DNA from: Polyangiaceae bacterium
GTDB lineage: Bacteria > Myxococcota_A > Polyangia > Polyangiales > Polyangiaceae
NCBI GenBank assembly: GCA_046351325.1
Contig: JAXLYR010000002.1
Location: forward strand, 752,334 to 816,333
DNA length: 64,000 bases
Direction of reading: 5' to 3'
How positions within the stretch are numbered: the first letter of the stretch is position 1; every line of letters starts with the position of its first letter. Positions 11,490 to 42,195 of this stretch are shown one piece after another. Under the pieces are notes generated by a model. It was not told the origin of the DNA. It made no database searches and saw only the letters and a list, made by a program, of their open reading frames with translations. Made by a program: the position numbers and the translations under genes.

Positions 11490-12539
11490 TCAGGCGCGCT
11501 TCTTCGCGTGCACGAAGTACATCGGGGTGAAGATGCCGAGCTTGCCGGCGCGCACGAGGGCGTCGGCGCCGTCGTTGAGGAACGAGCTCACCAGGCGCGT
11601 CCCCTTCGGCGCGAGGCCCACGCGCTCCATCAGGCCGGTCGCGGCGTTGGTGACCGTGCGGCCGATCGGGGTGCGGGGCAGGGCGCGCAGCGAGAAGCCC
11701 GAGCTGTATGCGGACTCGACGTCGAGGTCGGCGTGCCACGGGATGCCGGGGAGCGAGCCGTCCGCGAGATCGCGCGCGGCGACGACGTCGAAGCCGACCT
11801 CGCGGAGGGCGCTGGTCACGTCGTCGAAGGTCGCGAGATCCGCGATGCCGTTGCCGCGCTCGATGAGGAGCTTGAGGCGGCGGTGCTCGGGGTCGTTCTT
11901 GTCGTACTTCGGGGTCATGCACCACTCGTAGAACGCGAAGCCGCCGCCCGGCTTGAGGACGCGCGCGGCCTCACCGTAGATGCTCTGTTTGGTGGGCGCG
12001 TGGCAGGTCGCTTCGATCGCGTAGGCCGCGTCGAACGTCGCGTTCGGCACGGGGATGTTGAGGAAGTCCGCCTGCAGGATGGTGCACTGTCCCTCGAGGC
12101 CCTGCTTCGCGTTGTACTTGCGGCCCTTCTCGACTTGGTAGCCGCTGATGTTGACGCCCGTCACGCGCGCGCCGGTCGTCTTGGCGATGTGGCGCATCGG
12201 GCCGCCGACGCCGCAGCCGAGATCGACCGCGTGCATGCCGCGGCAAAGGCCGAGGTGATCAGCGAGGTAGCTCTCGTGGCGTGCGAGCGCGAGATCGAAG
12301 CGCTCGCCCGGGCGCCGCGACGCGAAGTGGAAGGCCTTGCCCCAGCCGAACTCGTAGAAGTCGGTTACAAGATCGTAATACTGGGTGGTGATGGTGGCGT
12401 AGCGGTCGGCGACCGATTCCCCCTCCGCGCGGTCGAAGTGCGCGACGTAGGCCTGCGCGGTGGACTCGACCTGGTCGCGAGAGAGCCCGGGGCGGGACTG
12501 ACCGGGAGCGGCTAGTTTGGATTCGGCGTGCGTGACCAT
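11490..12539 (-). CDS. Sterol 24-C-methyltransferase (ERG6/SMT1-like SAM-dependent methyltransferase)
   Basis: Near-collinear match to eukaryotic ERG6 signature blocks: YDLVTDFYEFGWG (SMT region I), VDLGCGVGGP (SAM motif I), YAIEATCHAP, VLKPGGGFAFYEW, DKNDPEHRR, DLADGSLPGIPW, LGLAPKG, IFTPMYFV. Confidence 0.8.
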   Translation of the reverse strand: MVTHAESKLAAPGQSRPGLSRDQVESTAQAYVAHFDRAEGESVADRYATITTQYYDLVTDFYEFGWGKAFHFASRRPGERFDLALARHESYLADHLGLCRGMHAVDLGCGVGGPMRHIAKTTGARVTGVNISGYQVEKGRKYNAKQGLEGQCTILQADFLNIPVPNATFDAAYAIEATCHAPTKQSIYGEAARVLKPGGGFAFYEWCMTPKYDKNDPEHRRLKLLIERGNGIADLATFDDVTSALREVGFDVVAARDLADGSLPGIPWHADLDVESAYSSGFSLRALPRTPIGRTVTNAATGLMERVGLAPKGTRLVSSFLNDGADALVRAGKLGIFTPMYFVHAKKRA

Positions 12540-12579: not shown

Positions 12580-13167
12580 TTAGGGGCTCGCTGGCTCCCG
12601 GCGTGCCGTTGCGAAGATGCGGGCCGAACGGACGAGTTCGAAGCCGAGCGTGCGTAGCTGCTTGTCAGTGCGCTCGTCTTTGATGGTGCCGTCCTTGCCG
12701 ATGACCTCTTGAGAGCGGTTGATCGGGACGACGAGGGGGACTGTCCAGGCGCGGAGTGAGCGCGCGATGTGGTCCATCGCGGTGATGGCTTGGAGGGCCT
12801 GCGCGCCCGCGGCGACGCCAATTAGACCTACAGGTTTGTCAGCGAGATAGGGCGGGTCTTTGTCGTTGAGGAGCTCGAGCCAGTCGATCGCGTTCTTGAA
12901 GATGCCGCTGATGGTGCCGTGATAGAGCGGGCTCGCCCAGACGATGGCGTCGGCGGCGGCGAAGGCCGTGACGAGCGACGCGACCGCGGGGGGCGGCGGC
13001 ACACCCCACTCGTAGATCGGGATGTCGAGCGTGCCGAGATCGAAGAGCTCGGTGTCGGCGCCGCGCTCCGCGGCGGCCGCGAGGACCACGCGCAGCGCGA
13101 CGAGGCTCGAGGAGCCAGGGCTCTTGGTTCCACCGAGTCCAACGACGCGCACGCGCTCCGAGGTCAC
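12580..13167 (-). CDS. NAD(P)H-dependent FMN reductase (flavodoxin-like fold)
   Basis: [17 protein letters not shown]-terminal flavin-binding loop, ~195 aa, typical SsuE/ArsH-like family size. Confidence 0.65.
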
Positions 13168-14879: not shown

Positions 14880-17378
14880 CTATCCGCGCTTCGCGGACCC
14901 GAGGCGCGGGAACACGACTGTCCCGCCCTCTTCCAGTGAAAGCTCGATCGAGCCGTCTTGGCGGAGGGCGCCTGCGAGCTCCGTTCGGTCATCCAGCTTG
15001 AGGAGAAATGGCTCCCCTGCGAGCGGGCGGCCGTCTTGATCGGTCAGTTCGATACGGGTCGGATCAGGCGGGGACTTGAGCTCGTCTTTGGCGCGGCTCG
15101 GGGAGTTGAGGAGGATCTGTTTGCCGTCGATCTTCACGTCCTTGCTCATCGCCACCGAGGCCTCGTCGGTCTTCACCGTGAGGCTCTTGGCGACGAGGGC
15201 GACGGCGTCCGAGGCGCAGAGCTTCAAGCCGTCGCTCGAAGTCTCGACCCGGGCCTCCTCACCCGAGAGGCTGACGGCGCTCGCGACCAGGTCGATGCGG
15301 TCCTTGGTGATCCGCACGAAGCTCGACCCCACGCCGAGGACGATCTCTCGATCGGAGCGGAGCTCGAGGCGCTCGGTCGCGAAGCTGGTCCGCGTGCCCT
15401 CCACGTGGAGCGCGCTGGCTGCGCTCTTGTCTGCGGTCCCGATGACCTGCGTGTGGTGTCCAGCCACGGTCTCGTGGAGCGTTTGCTTGAAGGTGTGCGC
15501 GGCGGGCCCAGCGATCGTCAATTGCTCAGCACCAGCGACCTCGAGCGCCCGGGTCGTGCGCACTACCTCCAACGAGGTCCCCGCGACGATCCGCCGGGCG
15601 CCCGTGACCGCGACGTCCTGATCGGAATCGATCTTCAGCGATTGTCCCCCCTCCAAGCGTGCCGATTCCACACCGACGACGTGGCGTACGGACTCGCCGC
15701 GGACCTCGAGCCGGAGAGCGTTCTCGACCCGCGTCTCGTGATCGTGCTCTGCGACGAGCTTGAGGTCGCGACTGGCGTGTAGATAGAGCTGCTCTTTACC
15801 CTGCTGGTCTTCGAAGGAGAGCTCGTTCGCGCCTGTGCCGCGCGTGGAGCGAGAGCGAAGCCCGCTGCGCGCACCGACGCCGACGTCGAACGGCATCGTG
15901 TGCGTGCCATTGAAGACGCAGCCGAGCACGATGGGTTTGTCCGGGTCGCCGTCCTCGAAGGCGACCACAACCTCCATCCCGGCCCGCGGAATGAACTGCA
16001 TTCCCCAATGAGCGCCCGCCCAGGGTTGCATGGTCCGAACCCAGCACGAGCTGCGATCGCCACCCGGGGCACGGTCCCAGTTGAAGTGGATCTTGATGCG
16101 GCCGAGCGCGTCCGCGTGGAGCTCGTCCAGCACGGGGCCGACGACGGTAGCTGTGAGCGTGGCGCTCACGACACGCCGAGGCCCGCGCTCTGGCAGGGTC
16201 AACGTCGAGGCTGGCGCACACTCGAAGCGACACTCCAGCCTGCGATCCTCGAGCGCATCGCTGCCTTTGTATCTTGCAGTTACGACGACGTACTCGCCAT
16301 TGTCGGCGTCGCGCGGGTGGTCGACGAGCTCGAATCGATACCCCGGCGAGAGCGCCCCGCTCGAAGTGGTGGCCGTCGCAGTGCTCGCCCGTCGACGAGC
16401 GCGCGCGAGCAGTCGCGCGGGTTCGTCTTTGACGTCGTCCCACTCGGGGTCGAGAAAGGCTCCGCCATGCTCGTAGAGCTCGAGGTCGAGCTCAGGGGCG
16501 CCGGGGAGTGCGGACTCGTCGCGACTGACAGCTGCGCTCGCGGAAGATGGAAAGAGGGGACGTTCGGGATCGTATTCACGATAGACCGCACGCGCCGCGC
16601 GCACCCGACGGCTCGCGCGAAAGCACTCAACGATGTTTCGGTCGCCACCGACGCCAGTTGAACCTTCGCGATAGTGCAGCGTCGGGACAGAAGCTCCTCC
16701 ACCCGAGGTGCCATTGGAGTCCGCGGCCGATGGATATGCAGCGGCGTTGTCCGCGAAGACTATGACCTCGCGGGCGCGAACCACGGACTCGAGACCAGCA
16801 TCGTTTGGGTCTCTCAGCCACGCGAGGACGGCGGCGGGCTGCTGGAAGAAGTGGAAGACGCCAGCCTCGGCGGCGAGCCGCTCGACGAACTCGAGGTCGC
16901 TCTCCTGATACTGGGTGATCATTGGCTTCGACGGGAAATTCCGCGTGAGCGCCCAGCGAAGGTCGATGTGGGGCGACAACACCTCTTCTATGACGGCAGG
17001 GACGGTCATGTCCTGAAACACGCGAGAACGGCGCGTGTGCTCGAGGAGGGCCATCGCGGGGACGAGTCGGTAGCGCTCATCCATCCGCGCGCCACCCTCA
17101 CGCGAGCCCTCAGCGCGCACCGCCGAGACCACGCCGTGAACGACACGCGGCCTATTGTCGACGGAGATTACCAGCGAGGCTCGGGCTCCGAGGACCAAAG
17201 AAGTGTCGACCGCGGCCTCGACAGACGCGAGGACGTCGAACGAGTAACACTTGGACAGAGCCTCGCGCCCGCGGAGTCGGTGCACGCGAAAGGACGTGGC
17301 GGAGAAACCTGCCACGAACAAGGAGAACGGAGCACTCAGTCCTTCAGTCATCGCGCCATCCACGGGGCTACGGGTCAA
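14880..17378 (-). CDS. vgrG: Type VI secretion system spike protein VgrG (copy 1), with ~130-aa C-terminal extension
   Basis: Canonical VgrG blocks: FSLFVAGFSATSFRVHRLRGREALSKCYSFDV, ITQYQESDLEFVERLAAEAGVFHFF, RIKIHFNWDR…SSCWVRTMQPWAGAHWGMQFIPRAGMEVVVAFEDGDPDKPIVLGCVFNG. Followed by a gp5-like beta-helix and extra C-terminal tail. ATGA overlap with the upstream gene. Confidence 0.9.
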   Translation of the reverse strand: MTRSPVDGAMTEGLSAPFSLFVAGFSATSFRVHRLRGREALSKCYSFDVLASVEAAVDTSLVLGARASLVISVDNRPRVVHGVVSAVRAEGSREGGARMDERYRLVPAMALLEHTRRSRVFQDMTVPAVIEEVLSPHIDLRWALTRNFPSKPMITQYQESDLEFVERLAAEAGVFHFFQQPAAVLAWLRDPNDAGLESVVRAREVIVFADNAAAYPSAADSNGTSGGGASVPTLHYREGSTGVGGDRNIVECFRASRRVRAARAVYREYDPERPLFPSSASAAVSRDESALPGAPELDLELYEHGGAFLDPEWDDVKDEPARLLARARRRASTATATTSSGALSPGYRFELVDHPRDADNGEYVVVTARYKGSDALEDRRLECRFECAPASTLTLPERGPRRVVSATLTATVVGPVLDELHADALGRIKIHFNWDRAPGGDRSSCWVRTMQPWAGAHWGMQFIPRAGMEVVVAFEDGDPDKPIVLGCVFNGTHTMPFDVGVGARSGLRSRSTRGTGANELSFEDQQGKEQLYLHASRDLKLVAEHDHETRVENALRLEVRGESVRHVVGVESARLEGGQSLKIDSDQDVAVTGARRIVAGTSLEVVRTTRALEVAGAEQLTIAGPAAHTFKQTLHETVAGHHTQVIGTADKSAASALHVEGTRTSFATERLELRSDREIVLGVGSSFVRITKDRIDLVASAVSLSGEEARVETSSDGLKLCASDAVALVAKSLTVKTDEASVAMSKDVKIDGKQILLNSPSRAKDELKSPPDPTRIELTDQDGRPLAGEPFLLKLDDRTELAGALRQDGSIELSLEEGGTVVFPRLGSAKRG

Positions 17379-18046
17379 TCGGGCTGACCGCTCGCATCCA
17401 CGAGCGCGTCTCGAGTGGCTTGGTCGAGCTCACCTTCAGGTAGGCCGGCGGCGCGCTGAAAGGCCTTCACCGCACGGGGGACGTCAGCCTCTTCGATCGG
17501 TCCACCCGACGTGAGATATCCCAGGTTCTCGAGCCGTTTCGCGACGCCCGCGACGGTGGTGGATGGGTCCACGTCACCGACGACCAATTGGTACTTGCGC
17601 TCGAAGTTGACGACGTCGAGCAGGATGGTCTTTGTCGTGATTGGACACTCCAGGGTCACGCGGACAATCTTCTGCGAAGGGCTCGCGCTCTCCCCGACTT
17701 CTTCCTTGGTCACCCGCGCGCCGCTAGCAGGGTCGACTGTGCATCCTGGTGTTTCGGGGGCGAGCTCACAGCCGGTGAAGCGCAGCTCGAGTTCGAGCCT
17801 CTGAAGCGGGACGGTCGCCTGATATTGATTGGTCGACTGCTTGCGGAGCGACGCGCCGCTGAGCTTACTTATTGGAAGGTAAATGACGTCGCCCGGAGAC
17901 AGGACGTCAGGCGACGCCCGCAGCGCGCGCAGCTTGTCGTTGGACGCGTGATTCCACACCTCGTCCACTGTCGCGCCGCGCTCGAACGCCAAGGCCTGCA
18001 AGTGGTCCCCGCGCCGAATGATGTACGGTCGATAGTCCTCAGCCAT
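17375..18046 (-). CDS. LysM domain plus C-terminal peptidoglycan-binding (PG_binding_1-like) domain protein
   Basis: N-terminal LysM (YIIRRGDHLQALAFERGATVDEVWNHASNDKL…PGDVIYLP). C-terminal LENLGYLTSGGPIEEADVPRAVKAFQRAAGLPEGELDQATRDAL resembles a PG-binding helical bundle. Translationally coupled to vgrG1. Confidence 0.7.
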   Translation of the reverse strand: MAEDYRPYIIRRGDHLQALAFERGATVDEVWNHASNDKLRALRASPDVLSPGDVIYLPISKLSGASLRKQSTNQYQATVPLQRLELELRFTGCELAPETPGCTVDPASGARVTKEEVGESASPSQKIVRVTLECPITTKTILLDVVNFERKYQLVVGDVDPSTTVAGVAKRLENLGYLTSGGPIEEADVPRAVKAFQRAAGLPEGELDQATRDALVDASGQPD

Positions 18047-28927: not shown

Positions 28928-30415
28928 ATGTCGCAACCCACGAGACCCATGCTGCCCCTCGAGCGGAAGGGCACACCCGCTCGGGTGGACCTCTCCTCTC
29001 CGGACTTCGACTTCCAACACTTCTTCGTGCGCAAGCTCGTCGCGCGCGAGGGCGTCTCGGAGCTCTACCGCTGCACGCTGCACCTCGCCTTGCCGACCTC
29101 CGCGAACGCCGACGTCACCGTCGCGAGCGCGATCGGCGCGGCGGTCCGCATCGAGCTCGTCGACCAAGGCGGAACGCCGGTGGGCGTGCTTCACGGCATC
29201 GTCGACGGCGCGAGCATCACCGGCGGCGAGGAGAGCCACGGCCTCGAGGCCTGGGAGATCACGGTCGCTCCGCGCGCTGCGCGCCTCGCGCTCGTGACGA
29301 CGCAGGAGATCTTCATGCAGAAGTCGGTGCCGGCGATCATCGCGGCGAAGCTGGAGGAGGCGGGGCTCGGCTCGAGCTTCGCGATGCGCCTCAGCGGGAC
29401 GTACCCGGAGCGCGAGTTCGTCGTCCAATATCGGGAGACCGATCTCGACTTCATCTGCCGGCTCGCGGAGCACGTCGGCATCTCGTTCTCCTTCGAGCAA
29501 GGCGAGGACGAGGAGATCATGGTCTTCACCGACGACACGAAGGCTCTCGCGCCGGAGCTCAGCGAGCGCGTCGTGTATTCGCCGCGGCGCGATGTCCTCG
29601 GGGTCTTCGAGCTCACGCGACAAGCTCGCATCATCCCGACGGTCTACGCGGTCCAGGACTACAACTATCGAAACCCGAACCTCGACGTCGGGGCGATCGT
29701 CGAGAGCGCGCTCGGCTCGGGTGGCGGCGTCGTCGAATACGGCGCGCACCAGAAGGACCCGGACGAGGGCAGGTGGCTCGCGAAGGTGCGCGCCGAAGAG
29801 GCCGAAGGGCGCGCGTGTTCTTACGCTGGTGTAAGCGTCGTCGGGGGCCTGAGCGCGGGCGTCCACTTCGCGCTCGAGTCAGCGCCGCCCTGGGCGGACG
29901 CCTCGCTCTTCGTCGTCCGCGTCGAGCACGAGCTGTCGACCCCGCTCGGTGGTGATGCCTCGGAGGCCGCGCGGTACGTGAACCGCTTCACGGCGATCTC
30001 GTCGAACACCCGCTTCCGACCGGCGCGCTCGACACCTCGCCCTCGCATCCACGGGGTGGTGAGCGCGGTCGTGCAGGGCTCGGGCGGCTCGAGCTACGAG
30101 GCCAACCTCGATCCGCAAGGCCGCTACCTCGTGCAGTTCCACTTCGACACCGCGGAGCCCGGGCTGCCGCAGCCGTCGAGGCCGGTTCGTATGTCGCAGC
30201 CCTTCGCAGGGCCGAACCAAGGCATGCACTTTCCGCTGCGGCCCGGGACGGAGGTGCTCGTCGTCTTCATCGACGGCGATCCCGATCGACCCATCATCGT
30301 CGGCGCGGTGCCGAACACGGTGACCCCGAGCGTCGTCACCGCCGTGGAGTCGCAGCGCCACCGCATCCAGTCTCACCACGGCCTGCTCGTGCAGTTTGGC
30401 AAATCGCTTGCTTAG
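28928..30415 (+). CDS. vgrG: Type VI secretion spike protein VgrG (copy 2), short form lacking most of the C-terminal beta-helix
   Basis: VgrG N-terminal/gp27-gp44 blocks: FQHFFVRKLVAREGVSELYRCTLHLALP, VVQYRETDLDFICRLAEHVGISFSF, VQFHFDT…QPFAGPNQGMHFPLRPGTEVLVVFIDGDPDRPIIVGAVPN; ends 495 aa. Confidence 0.85.
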   Translation: MSQPTRPMLPLERKGTPARVDLSSPDFDFQHFFVRKLVAREGVSELYRCTLHLALPTSANADVTVASAIGAAVRIELVDQGGTPVGVLHGIVDGASITGGEESHGLEAWEITVAPRAARLALVTTQEIFMQKSVPAIIAAKLEEAGLGSSFAMRLSGTYPEREFVVQYRETDLDFICRLAEHVGISFSFEQGEDEEIMVFTDDTKALAPELSERVVYSPRRDVLGVFELTRQARIIPTVYAVQDYNYRNPNLDVGAIVESALGSGGGVVEYGAHQKDPDEGRWLAKVRAEEAEGRACSYAGVSVVGGLSAGVHFALESAPPWADASLFVVRVEHELSTPLGGDASEAARYVNRFTAISSNTRFRPARSTPRPRIHGVVSAVVQGSGGSSYEANLDPQGRYLVQFHFDTAEPGLPQPSRPVRMSQPFAGPNQGMHFPLRPGTEVLVVFIDGDPDRPIIVGAVPNTVTPSVVTAVESQRHRIQSHHGLLVQFGKSLA

Positions 30416-30429
30416 TCAGGAGAAGACCA

Positions 30430-32012
30430 TGAGTGACACCCAAGGAACGACGAGCAGCAGCAACGGCAGCAACGGATCGACGGCGTCTCAGCCCGTATCG
30501 GAGACGGTCCCCGAGCATTTCCGCATCCTCGTGCCGAACCCCGAGACCGAGCTCCAGCTCGGGCAGGGCGACGCGGTCTCGGGTGGCGCGGCCTTCGTCG
30601 GCATCGCCGGCCGCGTGAAGAAGGGCGGTGTTCTCTTCGCCGCCGGAGGTTTCCCGGGTGGGCTCCAGGCCGAGGACGGGAGCTTCGAGCAGTTTCGCAA
30701 GGCGCACACGACGATCTCCGTTGCGGTCAGCGGCATCGCCGCGGCCTCGCTGCTCTTCAGGTCCGCTTATCAACGCAAGGAAATCTGCCTCTTCGATCTC
30801 GTCGTGAACGGCCTCCTCGGCTTCGCCGCGCCGGCAGGCATCGGCGTCGCTTTCGGGGCGATGGATAACGGGATGTCGAGCGCGGACGGCAGCATCGCGC
30901 TCTACGGCGACAAGAACGTCGCGATCGCGACCCCGATGACCTTCGGCGCTACCGCCGGCCTCGCCGCCTCGATCAACGGTGGGATCGTCGCGTCGCTCAA
31001 CGCGACCGGCGCGGCCTCGGTCAACGCGGTCGTGGCGAGCGTCAACGGCGTGTGGAAGGCGAACGTCGGCGCGATCGAGACGAACATCATCGCCGACAGC
31101 AAGCTCACGCTGGCCTCTCGTCGCGGCGGCGCACTCGTCGCTGGCGAGACGATCCAGATCGGCCAAGCCACGGCGAAGATGCCGCTGCTCGATCGATTCC
31201 TGAGCGGCGGGCAGTACGGGACCAAGCGGGTCGACCTGCGCGCCGACGAGGTCATCCACATGGAGCCGGGCGACGAGAAGACCAAGATCGCGGGCGCGCC
31301 GACCAAGCTCCACCTCGACAAGAAGACGGTCCGCGCCGAGACGACGGGCAGCGCGCTGACGCTCGACGCGAGCGGCACGTGGCACGCCGGCAACTCGATC
31401 ATGAAGCTGAGCTCCGACAAGCTGTCGCTCTGCTTCGGTGCGGTCGCACCGAAGGAGGCCTCCGACGCGATCATCAAACCGGCAGAGGTCGCGTGGAAGG
31501 AGGCGCAGGACGCCGCCGAAGAGATCGAGGAGACCGTCGACAAGGTCGGGTTCGCGAAGGCCGGTCTGCTGCTCGGGACGGTCGCTGGCGGCATTTCGAC
31601 CGCGATCGTTGGAGCTCAAAGCATGAGCGACGATCAGAAGTCGATGATCGATCTCGCGGCTCTCGGCGCCGGCATGGCGCTCGGGCCCCTCGCCGGGTTC
31701 GGTGTCGCGAAGGCCGTCGAAAAGGTCCTCACGAGCAAGGCGCAGGCAGCGGCCCGCAAGGCCGCGGACAAAGCCCTCACGGCGGCGGTGAAGGGAGGCC
31801 TCAAGGCGGAGCAGGCCGCTGTCAAAGCGCAGGGCAAGCTCCCGACGAACCCGGCGATCGAGCTCGCCTCGAGCGGCGTCACGCTGCGAGTCGGCAAGTC
31901 GAAGATCACGATCTCCGCGACGGAGATCTCGATCGAGACCGCGCCGGGACTCGAGGTGAAAATCAACGGCAGCACGTTCTCCGCCACTGGCGTCAGCCTT
32001 GCAGGGACCTGA
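30430..32012 (+). CDS. Uncharacterised 527-aa Gly/Ala-rich protein with hydrophobic segments and beta-helix-like repeats; candidate VgrG-associated cargo or split spike C-terminus
   Basis: RBS aggagaag before the ATG at 30430; hydrophobic stretches (TISVAVSGIAAASLLF, LVVNGLLGFAAPAGIGVAFGAM); periodic segments reminiscent of a VgrG beta-helix; Lys/Ala-rich helical C-terminus. Confidence 0.5.
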
Positions 32013-34563
32013 GGAACAACCCATGGCGCCCGTGATCTCCAACTCGACCAACCTCAAGCTCGGCTTCTTTTGGTGTCAGCTCGACCCCCCGACCCACGGC
32101 GTGACCTTCGTCGTGAAGGGCACGTACGATCTCGTGCACGGCGCCGCGGCGCGTGCGGTCGACGCTGAAAACGCGCTCTCGCTCGCGGGAGACGAGAGCT
32201 ACGAGGACGGCGGCAAGGCCTGTCGCTACCCGTCCGACTTCGCGCCGAAGAAGGCCCGCGCCGACGTGATGGTCGTCGGCGCCGCGACCTCGCCCGAGCC
32301 GGTGAAACGCATGGAGATCGCGCTCAAGCTCGGGGCGCTCGACAAGCGCCTGCTCGTCGTCGGCGATCGCGTGGCGGAGCATCACTCGGGCAAATGGATC
32401 GCGAGCGAGCCTAAGCCCTTCACGCGAATGCCGCTCCGCTACGAGCGCGCGCTCGGCGGACCGAGTTTCCTCAAGAACCCGATCGGCTGTGGCGTGCGTC
32501 CCACCGAGGGGGAGAGCACCTGTCCGATGCCCAACCTCGAGCTCCCGGGCAGGGTGAGCTCGACGGAGCCGGCAGGCCTCGGGCCGCTCGATCGCCGATG
32601 GGCCGACCGCATGTCGAAGGTCGGGACCTACGACGCGACCTGGAGAAAAGAGCGGTGGCCGTGGTTCCCGAAGGACTTCGACTTCGCGTATTTCAACGCG
32701 GCTCCGCTCGACCAGCAGATCGAGCTCGTGCGCGGTGACGAGGCGATTCGGCTCGAGGGCTTGCGCGGCGCCGCGTTCGAGTCGCGGCTCCCGGGCGTTC
32801 GACCGCGGCTCTTCGTGAGGCGGCCCACGGGTGACGCCGAGGTCGCGCTCGCGATCGACACCGTCTGGATCGACGCGGACGCGGCTCGCCTCGTCCTCGT
32901 GTGGCGCGGTCACATCAACGTCGAATCGAAGCGCTTCGAAGAGATCTCGAGCGTCGTCCTCGCGAGCGAGGAGCTCGCGTCGCCGCTCCGGCCTGCGAGC
33001 GAACACCTCGCGGCTGCCGTGCGTCGCGAGCCGACCGAAGAGGAGCTCGCCGATCGCGAGGAGGCGGAGGCGCGCGCCGACTCGGAGAGCGACGAGGCGC
33101 CCGCGAACCCCGAGAACGACGAGGAGGCCGCTGTTCGCGAGGCGAAGGAGCTCCTCGTGAAGGGCGGCGCACCCGCAGAGCTCCTCGCGAAGCTCGAGAA
33201 CGTCCGCACGACGGACGCGATGCTCGAGGTGCTCCAGCGCGAGGGCCCGAGCGCCGAAGGCGCGAGTGAGGCCGATATCGCAGCGGCGCACGCCCACGCG
33301 CGACAGGTGATGCTCGCGAACGGCGTGGACCCTTCGGCGCTCGAAGATCTCACCGAAGAGGCGCCCGCGACCGAGCCCGAGCCGAGCGCGACGCTGCGTC
33401 TCGATCGAGAGGACGTCCTCGCGCGACGCGCTGCGGGCGAGGATTTGGACGGCTTCGATCTCAGCGGCGCCGATCTCTCGGGGTTGGACCTCGCGCGCGT
33501 CAGCATGCGAAAGACCCGCCTCGTCGGCGCGCGCCTCGACGGCGCGCTGCTCGCTGGCGCGATCCTCACGGGCGCCGACCTCGAGGGCGCCCACGCGACA
33601 GCGGGCCCCGTGATCTTCGCGGGCGCCGATCTCACGGAGGCGAAGCTCGCTCGCGTCGTGTTTCCGGGCGCGGTGTTCGAGAGCGCCGACCTCACGCGCG
33701 CCTCGATGAAGGGCGCGCGGTTGGCACGCGCGTCGCTTTCTCTGGCCGTCATGGAAGACGCTGACTTGTCGGAAGCCGACCTCTCACACGCCGATCTCTC
33801 GGGCGCGAACCTCGCTCGGCCTCGCTCGACGCGAGCCGCTGCTCGCGTCGAACCTCACCGAGGCCGACCTCACGGACGCGAAGCTCGGTCGGCGTCACCG
33901 CGGGCGCGGAGCTCACGCAGACCTCGCTCGTCGGCGCGACGCGCTCCGCGGCGCGCAGCTCGACAAGGCGCGGGCCGCGGGCGCGAAGTTCGCGAGCGCC
34001 GATCCCCTCGGGTGCGTCGCTCGACGACGTCGTCCTCGACGGGGCCGACCTCACGAGCGCGAAGCTCGGGGCGCGCGCGGCGCCCGCGCCCGCTCCGCGA
34101 GGCCGTCCTCGAGAAGGCTGCCGGCGCCGAGCTCGATCTCGCGGGCGCCGATCTCAGCGGCTGCGCGCTGCCGGCGCGATGCTCGCGGGCGCTCGCTCTG
34201 AACGCGTCGCGCGCCCGAGAGCGCCTGGTCGGGCGCCGATCTCGCGGGCGCTCGCTTCGACGGCGCGGAGCTCGAGCGCGCCGACTTCACCGAGAGCGCG
34301 CTCGAGCGCGCCTCCTTCGACCACGCACCACGAAGCACGCGGTCCTCGTGCGCGCTCGCCTCGCCGGTGCGCGCCTGACGAAGGTCAACCTGCTCCGCCT
34401 CTACCTCGAGGCGCGCGGACCCGCGAACGCCGATTGTAGGAGCTCAAACTTCTTCGAGAGCGAGTTCCTCGACGCTGTTCTTCACGGGCGCGCTCTTCGA
34501 TCGCTCGAACTCCTCGGCCGCATTCAAGCTCGACAAGCGGAGCGCCTCGTGAAAACGCCGTGA
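31999..34563 (+). CDS. DUF2169-domain protein fused to pentapeptide repeats; 3-prime third disrupted by multiple frameshifts
   Basis: N-terminal DUF2169-like region (NSTNLKLGFFWCQLDPPTHGVTFVVKGTYDL). Clean pentapeptide repeats from ~33420 to ~33820 (ADLSGLDLARVSMRKTRLVGARLDGALLAGAILTGADLEGA…); beyond that repeats continue only across shifted frames. Confidence 0.7.
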   Translation: MQGPEEQPMAPVISNSTNLKLGFFWCQLDPPTHGVTFVVKGTYDLVHGAAARAVDAENALSLAGDESYEDGGKACRYPSDFAPKKARADVMVVGAATSPEPVKRMEIALKLGALDKRLLVVGDRVAEHHSGKWIASEPKPFTRMPLRYERALGGPSFLKNPIGCGVRPTEGESTCPMPNLELPGRVSSTEPAGLGPLDRRWADRMSKVGTYDATWRKERWPWFPKDFDFAYFNAAPLDQQIELVRGDEAIRLEGLRGAAFESRLPGVRPRLFVRRPTGDAEVALAIDTVWIDADAARLVLVWRGHINVESKRFEEISSVVLASEELASPLRPASEHLAAAVRREPTEEELADREEAEARADSESDEAPANPENDEEAAVREAKELLVKGGAPAELLAKLENVRTTDAMLEVLQREGPSAEGASEADIAAAHAHARQVMLANGVDPSALEDLTEEAPATEPEPSATLRLDREDVLARRAAGEDLDGFDLSGADLSGLDLARVSMRKTRLVGARLDGALLAGAILTGADLEGAHATAGPVIFAGADLTEAKLARVVFPGAVFESADLTRASMKGARLARASLSLAVMEDADLSEADLSHADLSGANLARPRSTRAAARVEPHRGRPHGREARSASPRARSSRRPRSSARRAPRRAARQGAGRGREVRERRSPRVRRSTTSSSTGPTSRARSSGRARRPRPLREAVLEKAAGAELDLAGADLSGCALPARCSRALALNASRARERLVGRRSRGRSLRRRGARARRLHRERARARLLRPRTTKHAVLVRARLAGARLTKVNLLRLYLEARGPANADCRSSNFFESEFLDAVLHGRALRSLELLGRIQARQAERLVKTP

Positions 34564-34726
34564 CCGACGCCCTCTCGCGCCTGCGCCTCGACCGAAGCCC
34601 GAGGTCGTCTCCGACCTCGACCTCGCGGCGCGGATTTCCGCAACCTCGATCTCGAGGGGATCGCCTTCTTTCGAGTGAACCTCAAGGGCGCGAACCTTCC
34701 GGGCGCGCCTCGCGGACGCCACGCTC

Positions 34727-36622
34727 GTGAGCTGCGAACTCACCGGCGCGAAGCTCGCGGGCGCGGATCTCCATGGCGTGCGCGTCGCGGCGCGCGAGGT
34801 GGTCGGGGCCTCTCCGGCCGACGCGAGCGCCGACGCTGGCGAAGACGAGCTCTCGAAGCTGCTCGCGTCCCAAGGCGTGGGCGGCCTCAAGCCCACCATC
34901 GCGGCGATGCGGAGCGTCGACCTCCGCGGCGCGAACCTCACGGGCGCGATCATCGCTGGCGCCTGCATCGACGGCGCTTGGTTCGACGACGCGAACCTCA
35001 CCGGCGCGCTCCTCACCGAGTGCTCGCTCGAGCGAGCGTCCCTGCGCGGCGCCGATCTCTCGAGCGCGACCATCGAAGAGAGCTCGCTCGCGAACGCGGA
35101 TCTCTCGGGCGCGAAGCTCCCGCGCGCGGTGCTCGTGAGCGTGAACCTCACCGGCGCCTCGCTCGCCGGGGCGCACCTGTCGAACGCGTTGCTCACGGGC
35201 CTCGCGCTCGAGGGCGCCGTCTTCGAGGGCGCGACCGTCGAGCACTGCACGCTCACGAACGTCACGCCGGCCGACGTCGCGCTCACCGGCGCGACCCTCG
35301 TCAACGTCTCGATGCCCGGCATGAACCTGCGAGGCGCGCGGCTCATGCCCGATCAGCGCGGCGCCGATCTCTCGGGCTGCGATCTTCGCGGGCTCGATCT
35401 GTCAGGGTTTTTGCTCGCGGACGCGAACCTCGCCGGCGCCGACCTCTCCGGCGCGCGCCTCGTCAGGGCCGACCTCTCGAGCGCCGATCTCTCGGGCGCG
35501 AACCTCAAACACGTCGACCTCTCGCGCGCCGCCGCGTCGAGCGCGTCGTTCAAGGCCGCGAACCTCGAGCGCGCCCGCCTCGCCGGGGCCACGCTCGACG
35601 ACGCCGATCTCGAAGGCGCGAACCTCTCGCGCGCCGCGCTCGACGGCGCGACGCTGCAAGGCGCGAAGTTCGGCGGCGCCGATCTCAGCCTCGCGAGCCT
35701 CTCCGAGTGCACGCTCGAGGACGTCGATCTCTCGGGTGCGTCGCTCGTCGGCGCGAACCTGCGCGGCGCGAAGCTCCTCGGCGCGACCGTGCAGAGCGCC
35801 ACGTTCGCCCGCGCGATCCTCACGGGCGCGACGCTCGAGTCGATCGATCTCTCCGAGAGCTCGCTCGAGGAGGCGCATCTCGAGCGGACGACCTGGTCCT
35901 CGTGTGATCTCAGCCGCGCGAACCTCACCGCGGTGAACCTGCGCGGCGCTCGAGCGAAGGGCACGCGCTTCGCGGGCGCGACGCTCCACCGCGCCGACCT
36001 CGTCGGCGCTGACCTCGTCGGCGCGGTGCTCGACGGCGCCGACCTGTCCGGCGCGCACCTCTCCGGCGTGTCGATCACCAGGTCTTCGCTCCGCGGCGTC
36101 GATCTCCGCGGCCTCTCTCTCGACGGCGCGTGCCTCACCGACGACGACCTCGCGAGCGCCGATCTCAGCGGCGCGAGCCTCTCGGGGGCGCGCCTCGATC
36201 GCTCGGATTTCACGGGCGCGCGCCTCGCGAAGGCGCGGCTCACGCAGGCCATCTTGGTCGCCGCGACCTTCACCGAGGCCGAGCTCGACGGCGCCGACCT
36301 CTCCGAGGTCGACGCGACGGACGCCTGCTTCGAGGCCGCCTCGCTCGTTGGCTCGAAGCTCACGCGAGCCCGCCTCGACAACGCGCGGCTCGAGCGCGCC
36401 CGCGCCCCGCACGTGAACCTCTCCGGAGTGCACGCGCGCTACGCAGACTTCTCCCACGCCGACCTCGACAGCGCCGAGCTCCGCGGCGCGGACCTGACCG
36501 GCGCGAACCTGCACGCGACGCAGCTCGGCGGCGCGCACCTTGCAAACGCAAAGGTCGACGGTCTTCGCGAGACCGACCCCGAGCTCCTCGCTGCGGAGCG
36601 CTGGGTCGCGCCGCGCGATTGA
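34727..36622 (+). CDS. Pentapeptide-repeat protein (A(D/N)LxG repeats throughout)
   Basis: Hundreds of residues of ADLSGANL/ANLTGA-type repeats; likely begins further upstream (~34560) across frameshifts. Confidence 0.8.
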   Translation: MSCELTGAKLAGADLHGVRVAAREVVGASPADASADAGEDELSKLLASQGVGGLKPTIAAMRSVDLRGANLTGAIIAGACIDGAWFDDANLTGALLTECSLERASLRGADLSSATIEESSLANADLSGAKLPRAVLVSVNLTGASLAGAHLSNALLTGLALEGAVFEGATVEHCTLTNVTPADVALTGATLVNVSMPGMNLRGARLMPDQRGADLSGCDLRGLDLSGFLLADANLAGADLSGARLVRADLSSADLSGANLKHVDLSRAAASSASFKAANLERARLAGATLDDADLEGANLSRAALDGATLQGAKFGGADLSLASLSECTLEDVDLSGASLVGANLRGAKLLGATVQSATFARAILTGATLESIDLSESSLEEAHLERTTWSSCDLSRANLTAVNLRGARAKGTRFAGATLHRADLVGADLVGAVLDGADLSGAHLSGVSITRSSLRGVDLRGLSLDGACLTDDDLASADLSGASLSGARLDRSDFTGARLAKARLTQAILVAATFTEAELDGADLSEVDATDACFEAASLVGSKLTRARLDNARLERARAPHVNLSGVHARYADFSHADLDSAELRGADLTGANLHATQLGGAHLANAKVDGLRETDPELLAAERWVAPRD

Positions 36623-36656
36623 GCCCCACCCCAACCCCACGGAGAGAACGAACCCG

Positions 36657-37466
36657 ATGATCCAGGCCTCGAGCATTTCGTCGCACGCACCCATGACCTC
36701 GAGCGGAGCCGCGGTGGCGCCGCAGCCGACGGGCGCGTGGGTGAGGCAAGGGCGCGTCGTCGCCTCGGCCGCGCCCGGCACCGTCTGCGTCGCGATCAGG
36801 CGCGAGAGCGGCGAGCCCGATGCTGTCCTCGCGCAGCTCTCGAGCGCAGCGATGGACGCGCAGGCCGGTGACGAGGTCGTGGTGCTCGGCGAGGGCGAGT
36901 CCGCGTTCGTGATGAGCGTCCTCGGCGCCGCGCGTGGGCCGAGCGCGCGCGCCGTCGTCGCGCGGTCGGGCGCGAGCGCTTCACTCGACGAGCACGCGGG
37001 CCGCGAGCGGCTCGTCGTGCGCGATCGCGACGACAAGGTCCTCTTCGAGGTCGACGCCGAGACGGGTCGCACGGTCATCAGCGCCGCGCGCGGCAACCTC
37101 GCGCTGCGCGCGCCCGACGGCGATCTCGAGCTCGAGGCGAAGGGCGCGGTGCGCGTCCGCTCGCAGGCCTTCGACGTGAGCGCCGAGAAGGCCGAGCTCG
37201 CCCTCGACGACGTCGCGTTCGCGGGCGAGCGCCTCCGCGCGAAGATCGGTGACGTCCGCAACGTCTTCGGGCGCCTCGAGACCGTCACCCAGCGCCTCTT
37301 CGAGACGGCGAAGAGCGCCTTCCGCAATGTCGAGGACCTCAGCCAGCTGCGCGCCGGCCGCGTCCGCACCCTCGTCAAGAAGGGCTACTACGTGCGAGGT
37401 GGCCACGCCGCGGTCGAGGCCGAAGAGGACGTGAAGCTCGACGCCAAGCAGATAAGGCTCGGCTGA
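36657..37466 (+). CDS. DUF3540-like protein (conserved in vgrG-DUF2169-pentapeptide islands)
   Basis: Position and size (269 aa) match the DUF3540 slot between pentapeptide and DUF4150 genes; motif pattern …ALRAPDGDLELEAKGAVRVRSQ…; RBS ggagag before the ATG. Confidence 0.55.
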   Translation: MIQASSISSHAPMTSSGAAVAPQPTGAWVRQGRVVASAAPGTVCVAIRRESGEPDAVLAQLSSAAMDAQAGDEVVVLGEGESAFVMSVLGAARGPSARAVVARSGASASLDEHAGRERLVVRDRDDKVLFEVDAETGRTVISAARGNLALRAPDGDLELEAKGAVRVRSQAFDVSAEKAELALDDVAFAGERLRAKIGDVRNVFGRLETVTQRLFETAKSAFRNVEDLSQLRAGRVRTLVKKGYYVRGGHAAVEAEEDVKLDAKQIRLG

Positions 37467-37978: not shown

Positions 37979-38539
37979 GTGGCGGCGGGCTCACCGTGCG
38001 TCTATGGACACTCCGTGCTTGCTTGTGTCGACGTCGGTTATGGTGAAGAGAGCGCGCTCGCGGCCTGCCTCGGGTTCCAGGCGTGGTCCGACGCCGAAGA
38101 GGCGTGCTGCGCGCGCGTACGCATCACCCACGTCGAGCCGTACGAGCCTGGCGCGTTCTACAAGCGAGAGCTGCCGTGCGTCCTCGCGGCGCTCCGCGCG
38201 TTGGATAGACCCGTAGAGGTCGTCGTCATCGACGGGTACGTGTGGCTCTCCGAGGGCGACAGCCCTGGTCTCGGGGCGCACCTGTTCGACGCGCTCGATC
38301 GGCGCGTCGTCGTCGTCGGCTGCGCCAAGACGGCCTTCAGGGGCTCGAGCTTTGCGCTTCCCGTGCTGCGTGGTCACAGCCAGAAGCCCCTCTTCGTCAC
38401 GGCCGCGGGGGTCGCCCCAGAGACCGCCGCCGACTGGGTGCGCGCGATGCACGGGGCGCATCGCATCCCGACGCTCCTCAAGCGGGTCGACCAATGGTCT
38501 CGAGAGTCGTCCCGAGGGGAGCTCGGCCCTCCCGGTTGA
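37979..38539 (+). CDS. nfi: Endonuclease V (deoxyinosine 3-prime endonuclease)
   Basis: [10 protein letters not shown]…[40 protein letters not shown] parallels E. coli Nfi (AGADVGFEQ…[34 protein letters not shown]); true start may be upstream. Confidence 0.65.
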
Positions 38540-38573
38540 CGAGCTGAGGGCTAGCGTCTATCGTCCTCTTACG

Positions 38574-38930
38574 ATGAGCGCGGCCAGCCCCAATAGCCCC
38601 GCTAGCGAGCCCTGCTGTCCGCCGCCCAACGAGCAGGCGGACCTCCGCCCGATCGAGGGCGACGACGCCGACGAGGAGCTCGCCGCCCTCTCGAAGGCCC
38701 TGGGCCACCCAGCGCGCGTGAAGATCTTGCGCATCCTATTGCGCAAGAACGCCTGCATTTGTGGCGATATCGTCGAAGAGCTGCCCCTCGCGCAGTCGAC
38801 CGTCTCCCAGCATTTGAAGGTGCTGAAGGAGGCAGGCCTCGTCCGCGGTGAGGTCGACGGCCCGCGTGTTTGTTATTGCATCGAGCCGCGCACACTGCGC
38901 CGGCTGCGCGCGCTGGTCGGGGGGCTTTAG
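38574..38930 (+). CDS. arsR: ArsR/SmtB-family metalloregulator
   Basis: HTH block [18 protein letters not shown]…[30 protein letters not shown] with metal-binding Cys pair; heads the ars operon. Confidence 0.85.
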
Positions 38931-38986
38931 GTCCTATTCCGTTTGGTTAGCTAATCGTGCATCGCCGATAATCGAAAGGGTCTCCC

Positions 38987-39352
38987 ATGTCCTCGACCAC
39001 CATCCGTGTCTTCGACCCCGCAATGTGCTGCTCGACGGGTATCTGCGGTACTTCCGTGGACCAAGATCTCGTTCGCTTTGCGGCGGATCTCGACTGGCTG
39101 AAGAGCCAGGGCCTCTCGGTCGAGCGGTTCAATCTGTCGCAGCAGCCCGCGGCGTTCGTGGAGGACGCGGCGGTGAAGGCCACGCTCGAGGCTCGCGGTG
39201 AGGCCGGTTTGCCCGTCGTCGAGGTGAACGGCGAGATCAAGAGCAGCGGCGTGTACCCGACCCGCGACGAGCTCGCGGCGTGGGCAGGCGTCGCGCCGAC
39301 CCCAGCCCCGGTGAAGCGCGCGGGCAGCTGTTGTGGTGGCGGCTGCAGCTGA
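38987..39352 (+). CDS. arsD: Arsenical resistance operon metallochaperone/repressor ArsD
   Basis: VFDPAMCCSTGICGTSVDQDLV…ERFNLSQQPAAFV…CCGGGCS, near-collinear with R773 ArsD. Confidence 0.9.
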   Translation: MSSTTIRVFDPAMCCSTGICGTSVDQDLVRFAADLDWLKSQGLSVERFNLSQQPAAFVEDAAVKATLEARGEAGLPVVEVNGEIKSSGVYPTRDELAAWAGVAPTPAPVKRAGSCCGGGCS

Positions 39353-39376
39353 CCTCCAGGGAGAGCCCGCGCCGTC

Positions 39377-41134
39377 ATGTTGATCGAGCACCCCACGCGC
39401 ATCCTCTTTTTCACCGGCAAGGGGGGCGCCGGCAAGACCTCCGCGGCCTGCGCGACCGCGATCGAGCTCGCGGACGCGGGCAAGCGCGTGCTGCTCGTCA
39501 GCACCGATCCTGCCTCGAATTTGGACGAGGTCCTCGGCGTGCGACTCTCGTCCGCGCCGACGAGCGTGCCCGGAATCCCAGGGCTCGCCGCGCTCAACAT
39601 CGACCCGGAGGAGGCCGCGCGCGCGCACCGTGAGCGCGTCGTCGGCCCCTATCGCGGCGTGCTCCCGGCCGCCGTCGTCGCAAGTATGGAGGAGCAGCTC
39701 TCCGGAGCGTGCACCGTGGAGATCGCCGCCTTCGACGAGTTCTCCAAGCTGCTCGCCTATCCGAGCGCGACCGGTGCGTTCGATCACGTCGTCTTCGACA
39801 CCGCGCCGACGGGGCACACGCTGCGCCTCTTGGAGCTGCCCGCGGCCTGGTCGAACTTCATCGACGCGAGCGTCGGCGGCACGTCCTGCTTGGGTCCGCT
39901 GTCCGGGCTCGCCGCGCAGAAGAGCCTCTACGCCGCGTCGAACGAGGCCCTCCGCGACGCGACGCGCACGAAGCTCGTCCTCGTCGCGCGACCCGAGCCC
40001 TCGTCCCTCGCCGAGGCCGAGCGCACGCGGGCGGAGCTCTCCGACCTCGGCGTGCGAAACGTCGCGCTCGTCCTCAACGGCCTCTTCCGCGCGGCCGATC
40101 CCAGCGATCGCACGGCGGTCGCGATGGAGGCGCGGGGTCGCGCGGCGCTCGAGCGCATGCCGAGCGGGCTCGGGGCGCTGCCCACCGTCGAGGTGCCGCT
40201 CTTCTCGTTCGGCCTCGTCGGCGTCGAGGCCCTGCGCAGCATGACGAAGCGCGGCGGCGCCGAGATGAAGGTTACACAGCGTACAAGTCAAAATGAGCCC
40301 GCCGTCCTCGCGCGCGGCGGCCGGCTCGACGCCCTCGTCGCGGAGCTCGCGGAGCGTCGCAACGGCGTCGTCCTGACCATGGGCAAGGGCGGCGTCGGCA
40401 AGACGACGATCGCGGCGCTCGTCGCGAGTGGGCTCGCGCGCCTCGGTCGAGAGGTCACGCTCACGACGACCGATCCGGCGGCCCACGTCGAGGCCGCGAT
40501 TCGTGAGCTCGGCGTCGCCGCGGACACGCTGCGCGTCAGCCGGATCGATCCGGCGCTCGAGACGAAGCGATACACCGAGGCCGTGCTCGCGACGGCAGGC
40601 AGCGGCCTCGACGCACAGGGCAGGGCGCTGCTCGAAGAGGATCTGCGCAGCCCCTGCACCGAGGAGATCGCCGTGTTTCGCGCGTTCGCCGAGACCGTCG
40701 CGGCGGGCGAGGATCGCTTCGTCGTCATCGACACGGCGCCGACGGGTCACACCATCCTGCTCCTCGACGCGGCCGAGGCTTACCACCGCGAGGTCCTGAA
40801 GAAGCCGAGCGGCAGCCCCGAGGCCGTGCAGCGCCTCCTGCCGCGCCTGCGAGACCCAGCGTTCACGCACGTGCTGCTCGTGACCTTGCCCGAAGCGACG
40901 CCCATCCACGAGGCGCTCGGGCTCGAGCGAGATCTCGTTCGCGCGGGCATCCAGCCCTTCGCGTGGGTCGTGAACCAGAGCCTCACGCCGCTCGCGCTCA
41001 CCGATCCGATCCTCACGACCCGCAGGGCGCTCGAGGCCACGCACCTCGCCGAGCTCGCGACGCACACGAGCCACGTCACGCTCGAGCCCTGGACCGCGGG
41101 CCTCTCGGTCACGGCGAAGACGACGAACTCATGA
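39377..41134 (+). CDS. arsA: Arsenite-transporting ATPase ArsA (two-domain)
   Basis: Two P-loops ([12 protein letters not shown] and [11 protein letters not shown]), [12 protein letters not shown] and [12 protein letters not shown] signature blocks. Confidence 0.9.
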
Positions 41135-42195
41135 CCGAAAAGACCGGCCTCCTCCGCAAGCTCTCGTTCCTCGATCGCTACCTCACGGTGTGGATCTTCG
41201 CGGCGATGGCGCTCGGCATCACGCTGGGCTTCGTCGCGCCGGGGTTCACCGCCGCGCTCAACCGAATGAGCGTCGGCACCACGTCGATCCCGATCGCGAT
41301 CGGCCTCGTGCTCATGATGTACCCGCCCCTCGCGAAGGTCCGCTACGAGGAGCTCGGCAAGGTCTTTCGCAACAAACGCGTGCTCGCGCTCTCGCTGGTA
41401 CAGAACTGGGTGATCGGGCCCGTGCTCATGTTCGGGCTCGCCGTGATCTTCCTGCGAGACAAGCCCGAGTACATGCTCGGCCTCATCCTGATCGGCCTCG
41501 CGCGGTGCATCGCGATGGTCATCGTCTGGAACGATCTGGCGAAGGGCGATCGCGAATACTGCGCGGGCCTCGTCGCCTTCAACTCGATCTTCCAGGTGCT
41601 CTTTTTCTCGGTGTACGCCTACTTCTTCGCGACGCTGGTGCCGCGGTGGCTCGGGCTCTCCGGGGCCGTCGTGAACATCACCATCGCCGAGATCGCGAAG
41701 AGCGTCGCCATCTACCTCGGCGTCCCGTTCGCTGCGGGGTTCCTCACGCGGCGCGTGCTCGTCAGCGCCAAAGGCCGCGACTGGTACGAAGCGCACTTCG
41801 TCCCGCGCGTCGGTCCGATCACGCTCGTGTCGCTGCTCTTCACGATCGTCGTGATGTTCTCGTTGAAGGGGGAGGCGATCGTGGAGCTTCCCCTCGACGT
41901 GCTCCGCATCGCGGCCCCGCTCCTCATCTACTTCGTCGTGATGTTCGCGGCGTCGTTCTTCATGAGCAAGCGGGTCGGCGCGGACTATCCGCAGTCGGCG
42001 ACGCTCTCGTTCACGGCCGCGTCGAACAACTTCGAGCTCGCCATCGCCGTCGCGATCGCGAGCTTCGGCATCCACAGCGGCGCCGCGTTCGCCGCGGTGA
42101 TCGGCCCGCTCGTCGAGGTGCCCGTCCTCATCGGCCTCGTGAACGTCGCGCTCGCCGCCGAGCGACGTTTCTTCAGAAAGCTCGAGCCCTCATGA
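41131..42195 (+). CDS. acr3: ACR3-family arsenite efflux permease
   Basis: [33 protein letters not shown]…; ~10 TM helices; ATGA overlap with arsA and arsC. Confidence 0.85.

Follow-up and report, generated by a model that had tools for sequence, protein, structure and literature searches.

We analyzed a 64,000-nucleotide stretch of contig JAXLYR010000002.1 from the Polyangiaceae metagenome-assembled genome (MAG) of an uncultured, soil-type myxobacterium, hereafter the window, which carries a gene for a homolog of sterol 24-C-methyltransferase (SMT; ERG6 in yeast). Judged from its sequence, the gene probably encodes an active sterol C-24 methyltransferase of the bacterial SMT/ERG6 branch, in a lineage restricted to the Polyangiaceae; we put the probability of this reading at roughly 0.75. 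Membership in the SMT/ERG6 family is as firm as sequence analysis allows. An original prediction, made from the DNA letters, had placed an ERG6/SMT homolog on a bacterial genome here, and the open reading frame (ORF) that it named is genuine, with exactly those coordinates, on the minus strand (Table 1).

Two Pfam domains define the protein: a class I methyltransferase core (Methyltransf_11, 73.5 bits, aa 105-203) and the Sterol_MT_C domain, which scores 76.1 bits (gathering cut-off 21.7) and covers positions 6-64 of the 66 in the model. Brown and Welander (2025 preprint) described 25 residues common to every SMT shown to be active; they lie in Regions I-IV, in the C-terminal domain and at four more positions. 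The window protein has all 25, its clade-mates have 24-25, and the non-SMT control RebM has 15. Domain and residues together bear out the predicted homology. The strong, collinear similarity to ERG6 that had also been proposed extends over almost the whole length of the protein and is far beyond chance (BLASTP, 268 bits, 42% identity over 341 aa, 3 gaps, E = 8e-92). The ERG6 reference used is an exact match to NP_013706.1 and was checked at 22 numbered positions quoted in the literature. RebM, the strongest non-SMT methyltransferase of solved structure, reaches 82 bits against the 268 of ERG6, and none of the NCBIfam equivalogs of other methyltransferase families comes near its own cut-off. 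The protein does not fall among the tocopherol or other small-molecule methyltransferases, a placement that the original prediction had considered: the RebM outgroup is far off and there is no rival equivalog.

The sequence motifs of the family are intact. Region I reads YEFGWGKAFHF and fits the pattern Y81-E-Y/F-G-W-G-x-x-F-H-F as defined by Brown and Welander (2025 preprint); within it, Tyr62 and Phe64 correspond to yeast positions 81 and 83. The residues of DxGxGxxGP in Region II are all present (D106, G108, G110, G113 and P114), Glu176 in Region III is equivalent to yeast E195, and Gly198 and Tyr204 in Region IV are equivalent to yeast G217 and Y223. Nine peptide blocks had been quoted as shared with ERG6, of which eight occur verbatim and in the order given (YDLVTDFYEFGWG at aa 55, VDLGCGVGGP at 105, YAIEATCHAP at 173, VLKPGGGFAFYEW at 194, DPEHRR at 216, DLAD at 257, IPW at 266 and FTPM at 337); the other, LGLAP, is spelled as in yeast and reads VGLAP in the window protein.

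A search of the PDB found no solved SMT structure. Entry 6f5z, labeled ‘24-sterol C-methyltransferase’, matches the generic methyltransferase core only (32 bits). The AlphaFold model of the window protein, which is confident (pLDDT 84, pTM 0.84), has as its nearest PDB folds, by Foldseek, class I methyltransferases that include TleD, geranyl diphosphate (GPP) C-methyltransferase and BezA (16-23% identity, E = 1e-14 to 4e-18, TM-score 0.53-0.63 normalized to the query). These three enzymes add a methyl group to prenyl C=C bonds, which is the same chemistry as that of SMTs. TleD, GPP 2-C-methyltransferase, BezA and the RebM/MitM-type enzymes share the class I Rossmann core and helical cap with the window protein, but have neither the Sterol_MT_C domain nor the Region I or III motifs.

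Table 1. Coordinates in the window of the SMT gene, its motifs and the adjacent upstream gene.
Feature	Position	Strand	Remarks
SMT coding sequence	11490..12539	minus	349 aa, ATG start, no interruption (ORF listing)
Sterol_MT_C, SMT-specific C-terminal domain (PF08498)	11499..11675	minus	aa 289-347, Pfam
Asn230 codon (yeast position 249)	11850..11852	minus	ERG6 alignment
Region IV, KPGGGFAFYEW	11922..11954	minus	aa 196-206
Region III, YAIEATCHAP	11994..12023	minus	aa 173-182, same as yeast ERG6 192-201
Region II, SAM-binding motif DLGCGVGGP	12198..12224	minus	aa 106-114, inside the Methyltransf_11 match
Region I, aromatic sterol-binding motif YDLVTDFYEFGWGKAFHF	12324..12377	minus	aa 55-72, ERG6 alignment
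NADPH-dependent FMN reductase gene	12580..13167	minus	Pfam FMN_red, 107 bits; 40 nt upstream of the SMT gene

The 349-aa product is a 100% match to NCBI MFO0548743.1, whose record is titled ‘MAG: methyltransferase domain-containing protein [Polyangiaceae bacterium]’ and lies on a 1,141,454-bp contig. Comparison with four orthologs from the same subclade gave dN/dS values of 0.20-0.26; the SMT gene is therefore maintained, under purifying selection. Its GC content (0.69) and GC content at third codon positions (GC3, 0.93) are compatible with the window GC of 0.685. Because this composition is typical of the window and the neighbors on the 1.14 Mb contig are bacterial (LysR, FMN reductase, GDP-L-fucose synthase, VgrG and an ars operon), eukaryotic contamination is excluded as the source of the gene. 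A promoter and terminator scan around the SMT gene gave no signal exceeding the shuffled expectation, and inspection of the junction sequence revealed no clear Shine-Dalgarno sequence ahead of the ATG.

For phylogenetic placement, a neighbor-joining tree was constructed from 61 sequences and 323 columns (100 bootstraps, RebM as outgroup). The window protein is recovered in a subclade of 12 exclusively Polyangiaceae sequences (76-83% identity, bootstrap 96), with another Polyangiaceae subclade as its sister (bootstrap 86 at the join). Orthologs are present in at least five independent Polyangiaceae MAGs. A long branch divides the RebM outgroup from all SMTs; the deep nodes of the family are unsupported, and the yeast and plant SMTs nest among bacterial sequences without support. 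Identity is 41-42% between the window protein and ERG6, and 44% between ERG6 and plant SMT1. Scanning the species-representative genomes of bacteria and archaea returned at least 553 confirmed stretches encoding SMT relatives, the best 80 of which all come from MAGs assigned to the Myxococcota, Chloroflexota, Latescibacterota, Gemmatimonadota, Planctomycetota, Poriferihabitaceae, Binatia, Alpha- and Gammaproteobacteria, and others. SMT relatives are thus encoded by at least several hundred bacterial species genomes. Two descriptions in the original prediction fall with these results: the protein is not of a ‘eukaryote-type’ but belongs to a large bacterial SMT radiation, and the statement that side-chain methylation is ‘rarer still’ in bacteria than sterol synthesis is outdated, given several hundred genomes and in vitro activity demonstrated since 2023.

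The sister subclade includes a 56% identical SMT, MFO0553806.1, encoded on a 272,242-bp contig of a ‘Polyangiaceae bacterium’ MAG. Its accession is 5,063 numbers after MFO0548743.1, and this proximity suggests that the same MAG may hold both paralogs. Pairs of SMT genes occur elsewhere: in three of the fetched loci (L043, L067 and L075), another SMT homolog is encoded no more than 10 kb from the first. These additional copies have 36-43% identity to the window protein; two of them group in the tree as a divergent pair.

The bacterial SMTs of Brown et al. (2023) share with the window protein its family, its domain architecture and the 25 conserved residues. Identity to the window protein is ~53% for the SMT of L008, from a species-representative Sandaracinus MAG; the Sandaracinus SMTs likewise have a myxobacterial host that is known from a MAG only. 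The window lineage is separate and restricted to the Polyangiaceae, a family with no entry in the supplements of Brown et al. (2023), and position 249 is Asn in the window protein but Asp in the proteins of L008 and a second locus, L012. The window protein is collinear with yeast ERG6 in Regions I-IV and the C-terminal domain, has the same Region III and shares the 25 residues; it has a shorter N-terminus, lacks a C-terminal tail and differs at positions 83 (Phe for Tyr), 249 (Asn for Asp) and 219 (Gly for Thr). The host of ERG6 is yeast, whereas that of the window SMT is a bacterium, with no linked pathway known. Plant SMT1 (cycloartenol C-24 methyltransferase, from Actinidia) is about equidistant from the two, with 42% identity to the window protein and 44% to ERG6; it has Asn249 and Tyr81, as does the window protein, but Tyr at position 83, and it works within a defined cycloartenol pathway. 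The propylating bacterial SMTs (from Chlamydiae and an Aplysina symbiont) are of the same family and have the Region I Phe83 that is also found in the window protein, which, unlike them, has no Gly249.

From these comparisons we infer the activity, substrate and product range of the enzyme. The SMT mechanism is established for the yeast and plant enzymes (Brown and Welander, 2025 preprint). By analogy, Region II (DLGCGVGGP) would bind S-adenosylmethionine (SAM) as the methyl donor, and the sterol side chain would be seated in the aromatic pocket of Regions I, III and IV. The methyl group would be added to the isolated delta-24 double bond, at C-24, and the C-25 carbocation would then be resolved by a hydride shift and proton loss, yielding 24-methyl or 24-methylene (C28) sterols. 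Tyr81, Phe83 and the presence of Asn rather than Gly at position 249 lead us to predict C28 24-methyl products and perhaps C29 24-ethyl products; 24-isopropyl (propylated) sterols are not predicted. Throughout the Polyangiaceae group examined, positions 249 and 81 are Asn and Tyr, and position 83 is mostly Phe; Asn249 also occurs in plant SMT1. In the 2025 preprint, Gly249 was necessary, although not sufficient, for the third methylation and thus for 24-isopropyl (C30) output in all mutants tested, and G249N mutants lost C30 and retained C28 and C29 products. Activity itself is made plausible by the record of the family: 20 of 24 bacterial metagenomic SMTs were active in vitro, including two of a marine Sandaracinus MAG (Brown et al. 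2023, Nat Commun 14:1859).

Several observations weigh against an active sterol methyltransferase in this organism. Of 11 inactive SMT homologs in the 2025 preprint, four kept all of the conserved residues, and sequence is therefore no guarantee of activity. The bacterial SMT papers cited here (Brown et al. 2023; 2025 preprint) contain no report of 24-alkyl sterols from a bacterial isolate. Screening of the window, by Pfam analysis of 49 ORFs and by tblastn with 68 ORFs from four genuine sterol clusters, found no oxidosqualene cyclase (OSC), squalene epoxidase, sterol reductase, desaturase or demethylase in the 64 kb, and in the seven Polyangiaceae-group contexts examined there are no sterol genes within 10 kb of the SMT gene. 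Database queries with the OSCs of a Polyangium MAG and a Minicystis MAG gave at least 120 matches each; among the 120 listed, down to ~56% identity, none is attributable to this MAG and none is named Polyangiaceae bacterium. OSC is also sparse and patchy in the Polyangiaceae and Sandaracinaceae (2024 preprint).

The screen agrees with the original prediction that neither an oxidosqualene cyclase nor a squalene epoxidase is encoded in the window. Two other genes had been put forward as possible sterol-tailoring enzymes, and neither assignment survives. The P450 (25136-26521) has no specific affinity to the sterol 14-alpha-demethylase CYP51: it scores 135 bits with CYP51 of M. capsulatus and 94 with that of M. 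tuberculosis, no better than with other P450 families (CYP170A1, 139; CYP4B1, 129), and its top NCBIfam models are terpenoid or ribosomally synthesized and post-translationally modified peptide (RiPP) P450s, none over the cut-off. The Rieske protein (60091-61101) is not the 4-beta-methylsterol monooxygenase SdmA. It matches the SdmA model (NCBIfam NF052579, cut-off 600) with 64.6 bits over positions 16-178 only, about half of the model, whereas the cluster-encoded SdmA-like Rieske proteins of L008 and L012, used for calibration, reach 412 and 422 bits and match positions 3-348; by tblastn the window Rieske protein has 27-29% identity to these over ~155 aa.

The surroundings of the SMT gene vary among relatives. 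A LysR gene is on its other side, in convergent orientation, and the FMN reductase gene, being 40 nt upstream on the same strand, could possibly be co-transcribed with it. This pairing is probably incidental because it is kept in no relative (L001, L002, L086-L092); with other neighbors found there, the reductase is ruled out as a conserved SMT partner, and it was also rejected as an ArsH (51 bits, cut-off 292). The five independent Polyangiaceae-group contexts (the window, L001, L002, L086-L090 and L091/L092) differ from each other, and no conserved synteny around the SMT gene was found across the window, L001, L002, L086-L090 and L091. L091 and L092 come from a Polyangiaceae MAG whose SMT is in the sister subclade; there, a gene with a CAP/PR-1 domain (PF00188; L091:11007-11885 and L092:8163-9041, both minus strand) is convergent with the SMT gene at a distance of 5 bp. 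CAP proteins bind sterols in yeast, and the adjacency may reflect a functional link or chance. A 79%-identical ortholog (P0007) occurs on 24 metagenome contigs; in those from the Joint Genome Institute (JGI) that we examined (L086-L090), a TonB-dependent receptor with an ExbB/ExbD/TonB set is ~1.5 kb from the SMT gene, on the opposite strand.

An OSC with the DCTAE motif was found within 10 kb of the SMT gene in 25 of the 82 fetched loci, in relatives with ~50% identity. Among these loci are one from a Sandaracinus MAG and one from a Polyangium MAG, in both of which the SMT gene is beside an OSC and an SdmA-like Rieske gene; the window SMT, in contrast, is outside any sterol cluster. In L033 (11030-14569, minus strand) and L061 (11119-14628, minus strand), the SMT gene adjoins a squalene epoxidase-oxidosqualene cyclase fusion, with the Pfam domains FAD_binding_3 plus SE and SQHop_cyclase_N plus C. 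A single ORF of ~1,150-1,270 aa adjoins the SMT gene in these two and in ~12 further loci (L046, L054, L058, L062, L063, L067, L069, L071, L073, L076); in the latter, ORF length and the DCTAE motif suggest the same fusion. The fused ORFs belong to Dehalococcoidia, Chloroflexota, Gammaproteobacteria, Binatia and Rhodothermales MAGs.

As the source of the substrate we tentatively, and slightly ahead of uptake from eukaryotic prey, favor an endogenous sterol pathway encoded elsewhere in this large genome and not linked to the SMT gene. Cultured Minicystis rosea and Sandaracinus amylolyticus make cholesterol (2024 preprint), and marine myxobacteria were considered the best candidates for de novo synthesis by Brown et al. 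(2023). It is also conceivable, at something like one chance in three, that this is a true SMT in an organism without sterol synthesis of its own, which remodels the sterols of eukaryotic prey or neighbors such as fungi and protists. The SMT gene stands alone in the window, as it does in all Polyangiaceae-group contexts examined, no OSC among the matches listed can be attributed to this MAG, and the sparseness of OSC in the family (2024 preprint) points the same way. There is a precedent in a Chlamydiae MAG whose functional SMT is its only sterol gene; Brown et al. (2023) considered it possible that this enzyme modifies sterols obtained from the host. The CAP/PR-1 gene that abuts the SMT gene in one relative and the TonB-dependent receptor system near it in another would also suit an uptake scenario, but these neighbors are not kept across contexts, and no sterol uptake system was identified within the window. 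Furthermore, the evidence for the absence of OSC covers 64 kb of a multi-megabase MAG, and myxobacterial sterol genes are often dispersed.

An SMT-family enzyme could instead act on an isoprenoid that is not a sterol but ends in an isopropylidene group (squalene or a different triterpenoid, for example), although we consider this improbable. The SMT-like triterpene methyltransferases of Botryococcus braunii reportedly act on squalene and botryococcene, and some of the closest solved folds belong to enzymes with other prenyl substrates. The lack of linkage to a sterol pathway would fit such a substrate, and the distinct Polyangiaceae lineage, with possibly two paralogs, could reflect a change of substrate. 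Against this, the protein retains all 25 residues of functional SMTs, with sterol-binding Region I complete and Regions III and IV kept as well, its clade has ordinary branch lengths inside the SMT tree, and no non-sterol substrate of a bacterial SMT homolog is reported in the bacterial SMT papers cited here. An inactive relic or an artefact of assembly or binning, which has in its favor that some homologs with intact motifs are inactive in vitro and nothing specific otherwise, is effectively refuted by the intact ORF, the low dN/dS, the window-typical GC and GC3, the bacterial neighbors on a long contig and the orthologs in independent MAGs.

Bacterial SMTs, myxobacterial ones included, have been known, and shown to be active in vitro, since 2023, and the active sterol C-24 methyltransferase that we propose here is a further example. 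Its contribution is small: a separate lineage, restricted to the Polyangiaceae and possibly duplicated, that is always away from sterol clusters in the contexts examined. A broader reading, which we regard as rather unlikely, is that the Polyangiaceae keep a vertical SMT lineage of their own, duplicated into two paralogous subclades and unlinked from sterol clusters. If so, free-living predatory myxobacteria of soil or freshwater would make sterols with a 24-methyl or 24-ethyl group de novo via a dispersed pathway, or would systematically re-alkylate the sterols of their prey, and theirs would be the first bacterial source of ergostane- and stigmastane-type precursors that is both family-wide and non-symbiotic. 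Steranes alkylated at C-24 (ergostane, stigmastane, 24-isopropylcholestane) are taken as eukaryote- or sponge-specific molecular fossils, and each additional bacterial lineage that alkylates the sterol side chain weakens this interpretation, as was argued with enzyme data in 2023. The gene alone leaves that picture unchanged; its value is as a candidate, or one of a pair of candidates, for expression, and for the question of endogenous versus scavenged sterols in the case of solitary SMTs. Its significance would rise if the genome held the whole sterol pathway, or if remodeling of prey sterols by solitary SMTs were demonstrated.

Other features of the window are unrelated to sterols. A complete arsenic-resistance operon (38352-42195, plus strand) encodes an ArsR-type regulator, ArsD, an ArsA ATPase and an SBF/Acr3-type permease. 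There are two VgrG-type type VI secretion spike genes (14880-18046, minus strand, and in the region 28928-37466, plus strand); in the second region, VgrG precedes an unknown ORF and genes for a DUF2169-pentapeptide protein, a pentapeptide-repeat protein of 631 aa and a DUF3540 protein, and the region is probably an effector or adaptor module. A 321-aa ORF (49829-50794, minus strand) consists solely of DNA gyrase A C-terminal beta-propeller repeats, and the ~2.8 kb upstream of it (50800-53600) contain only low-GC3 ORFs with no Pfam match; it is either a stand-alone GyrA-CTD protein or part of a disrupted gyrA-like gene. Tandem paralogs of ~700 aa (55059-57203 and 57258-59360, both plus strand) have three CarboxypepD_reg domains each.

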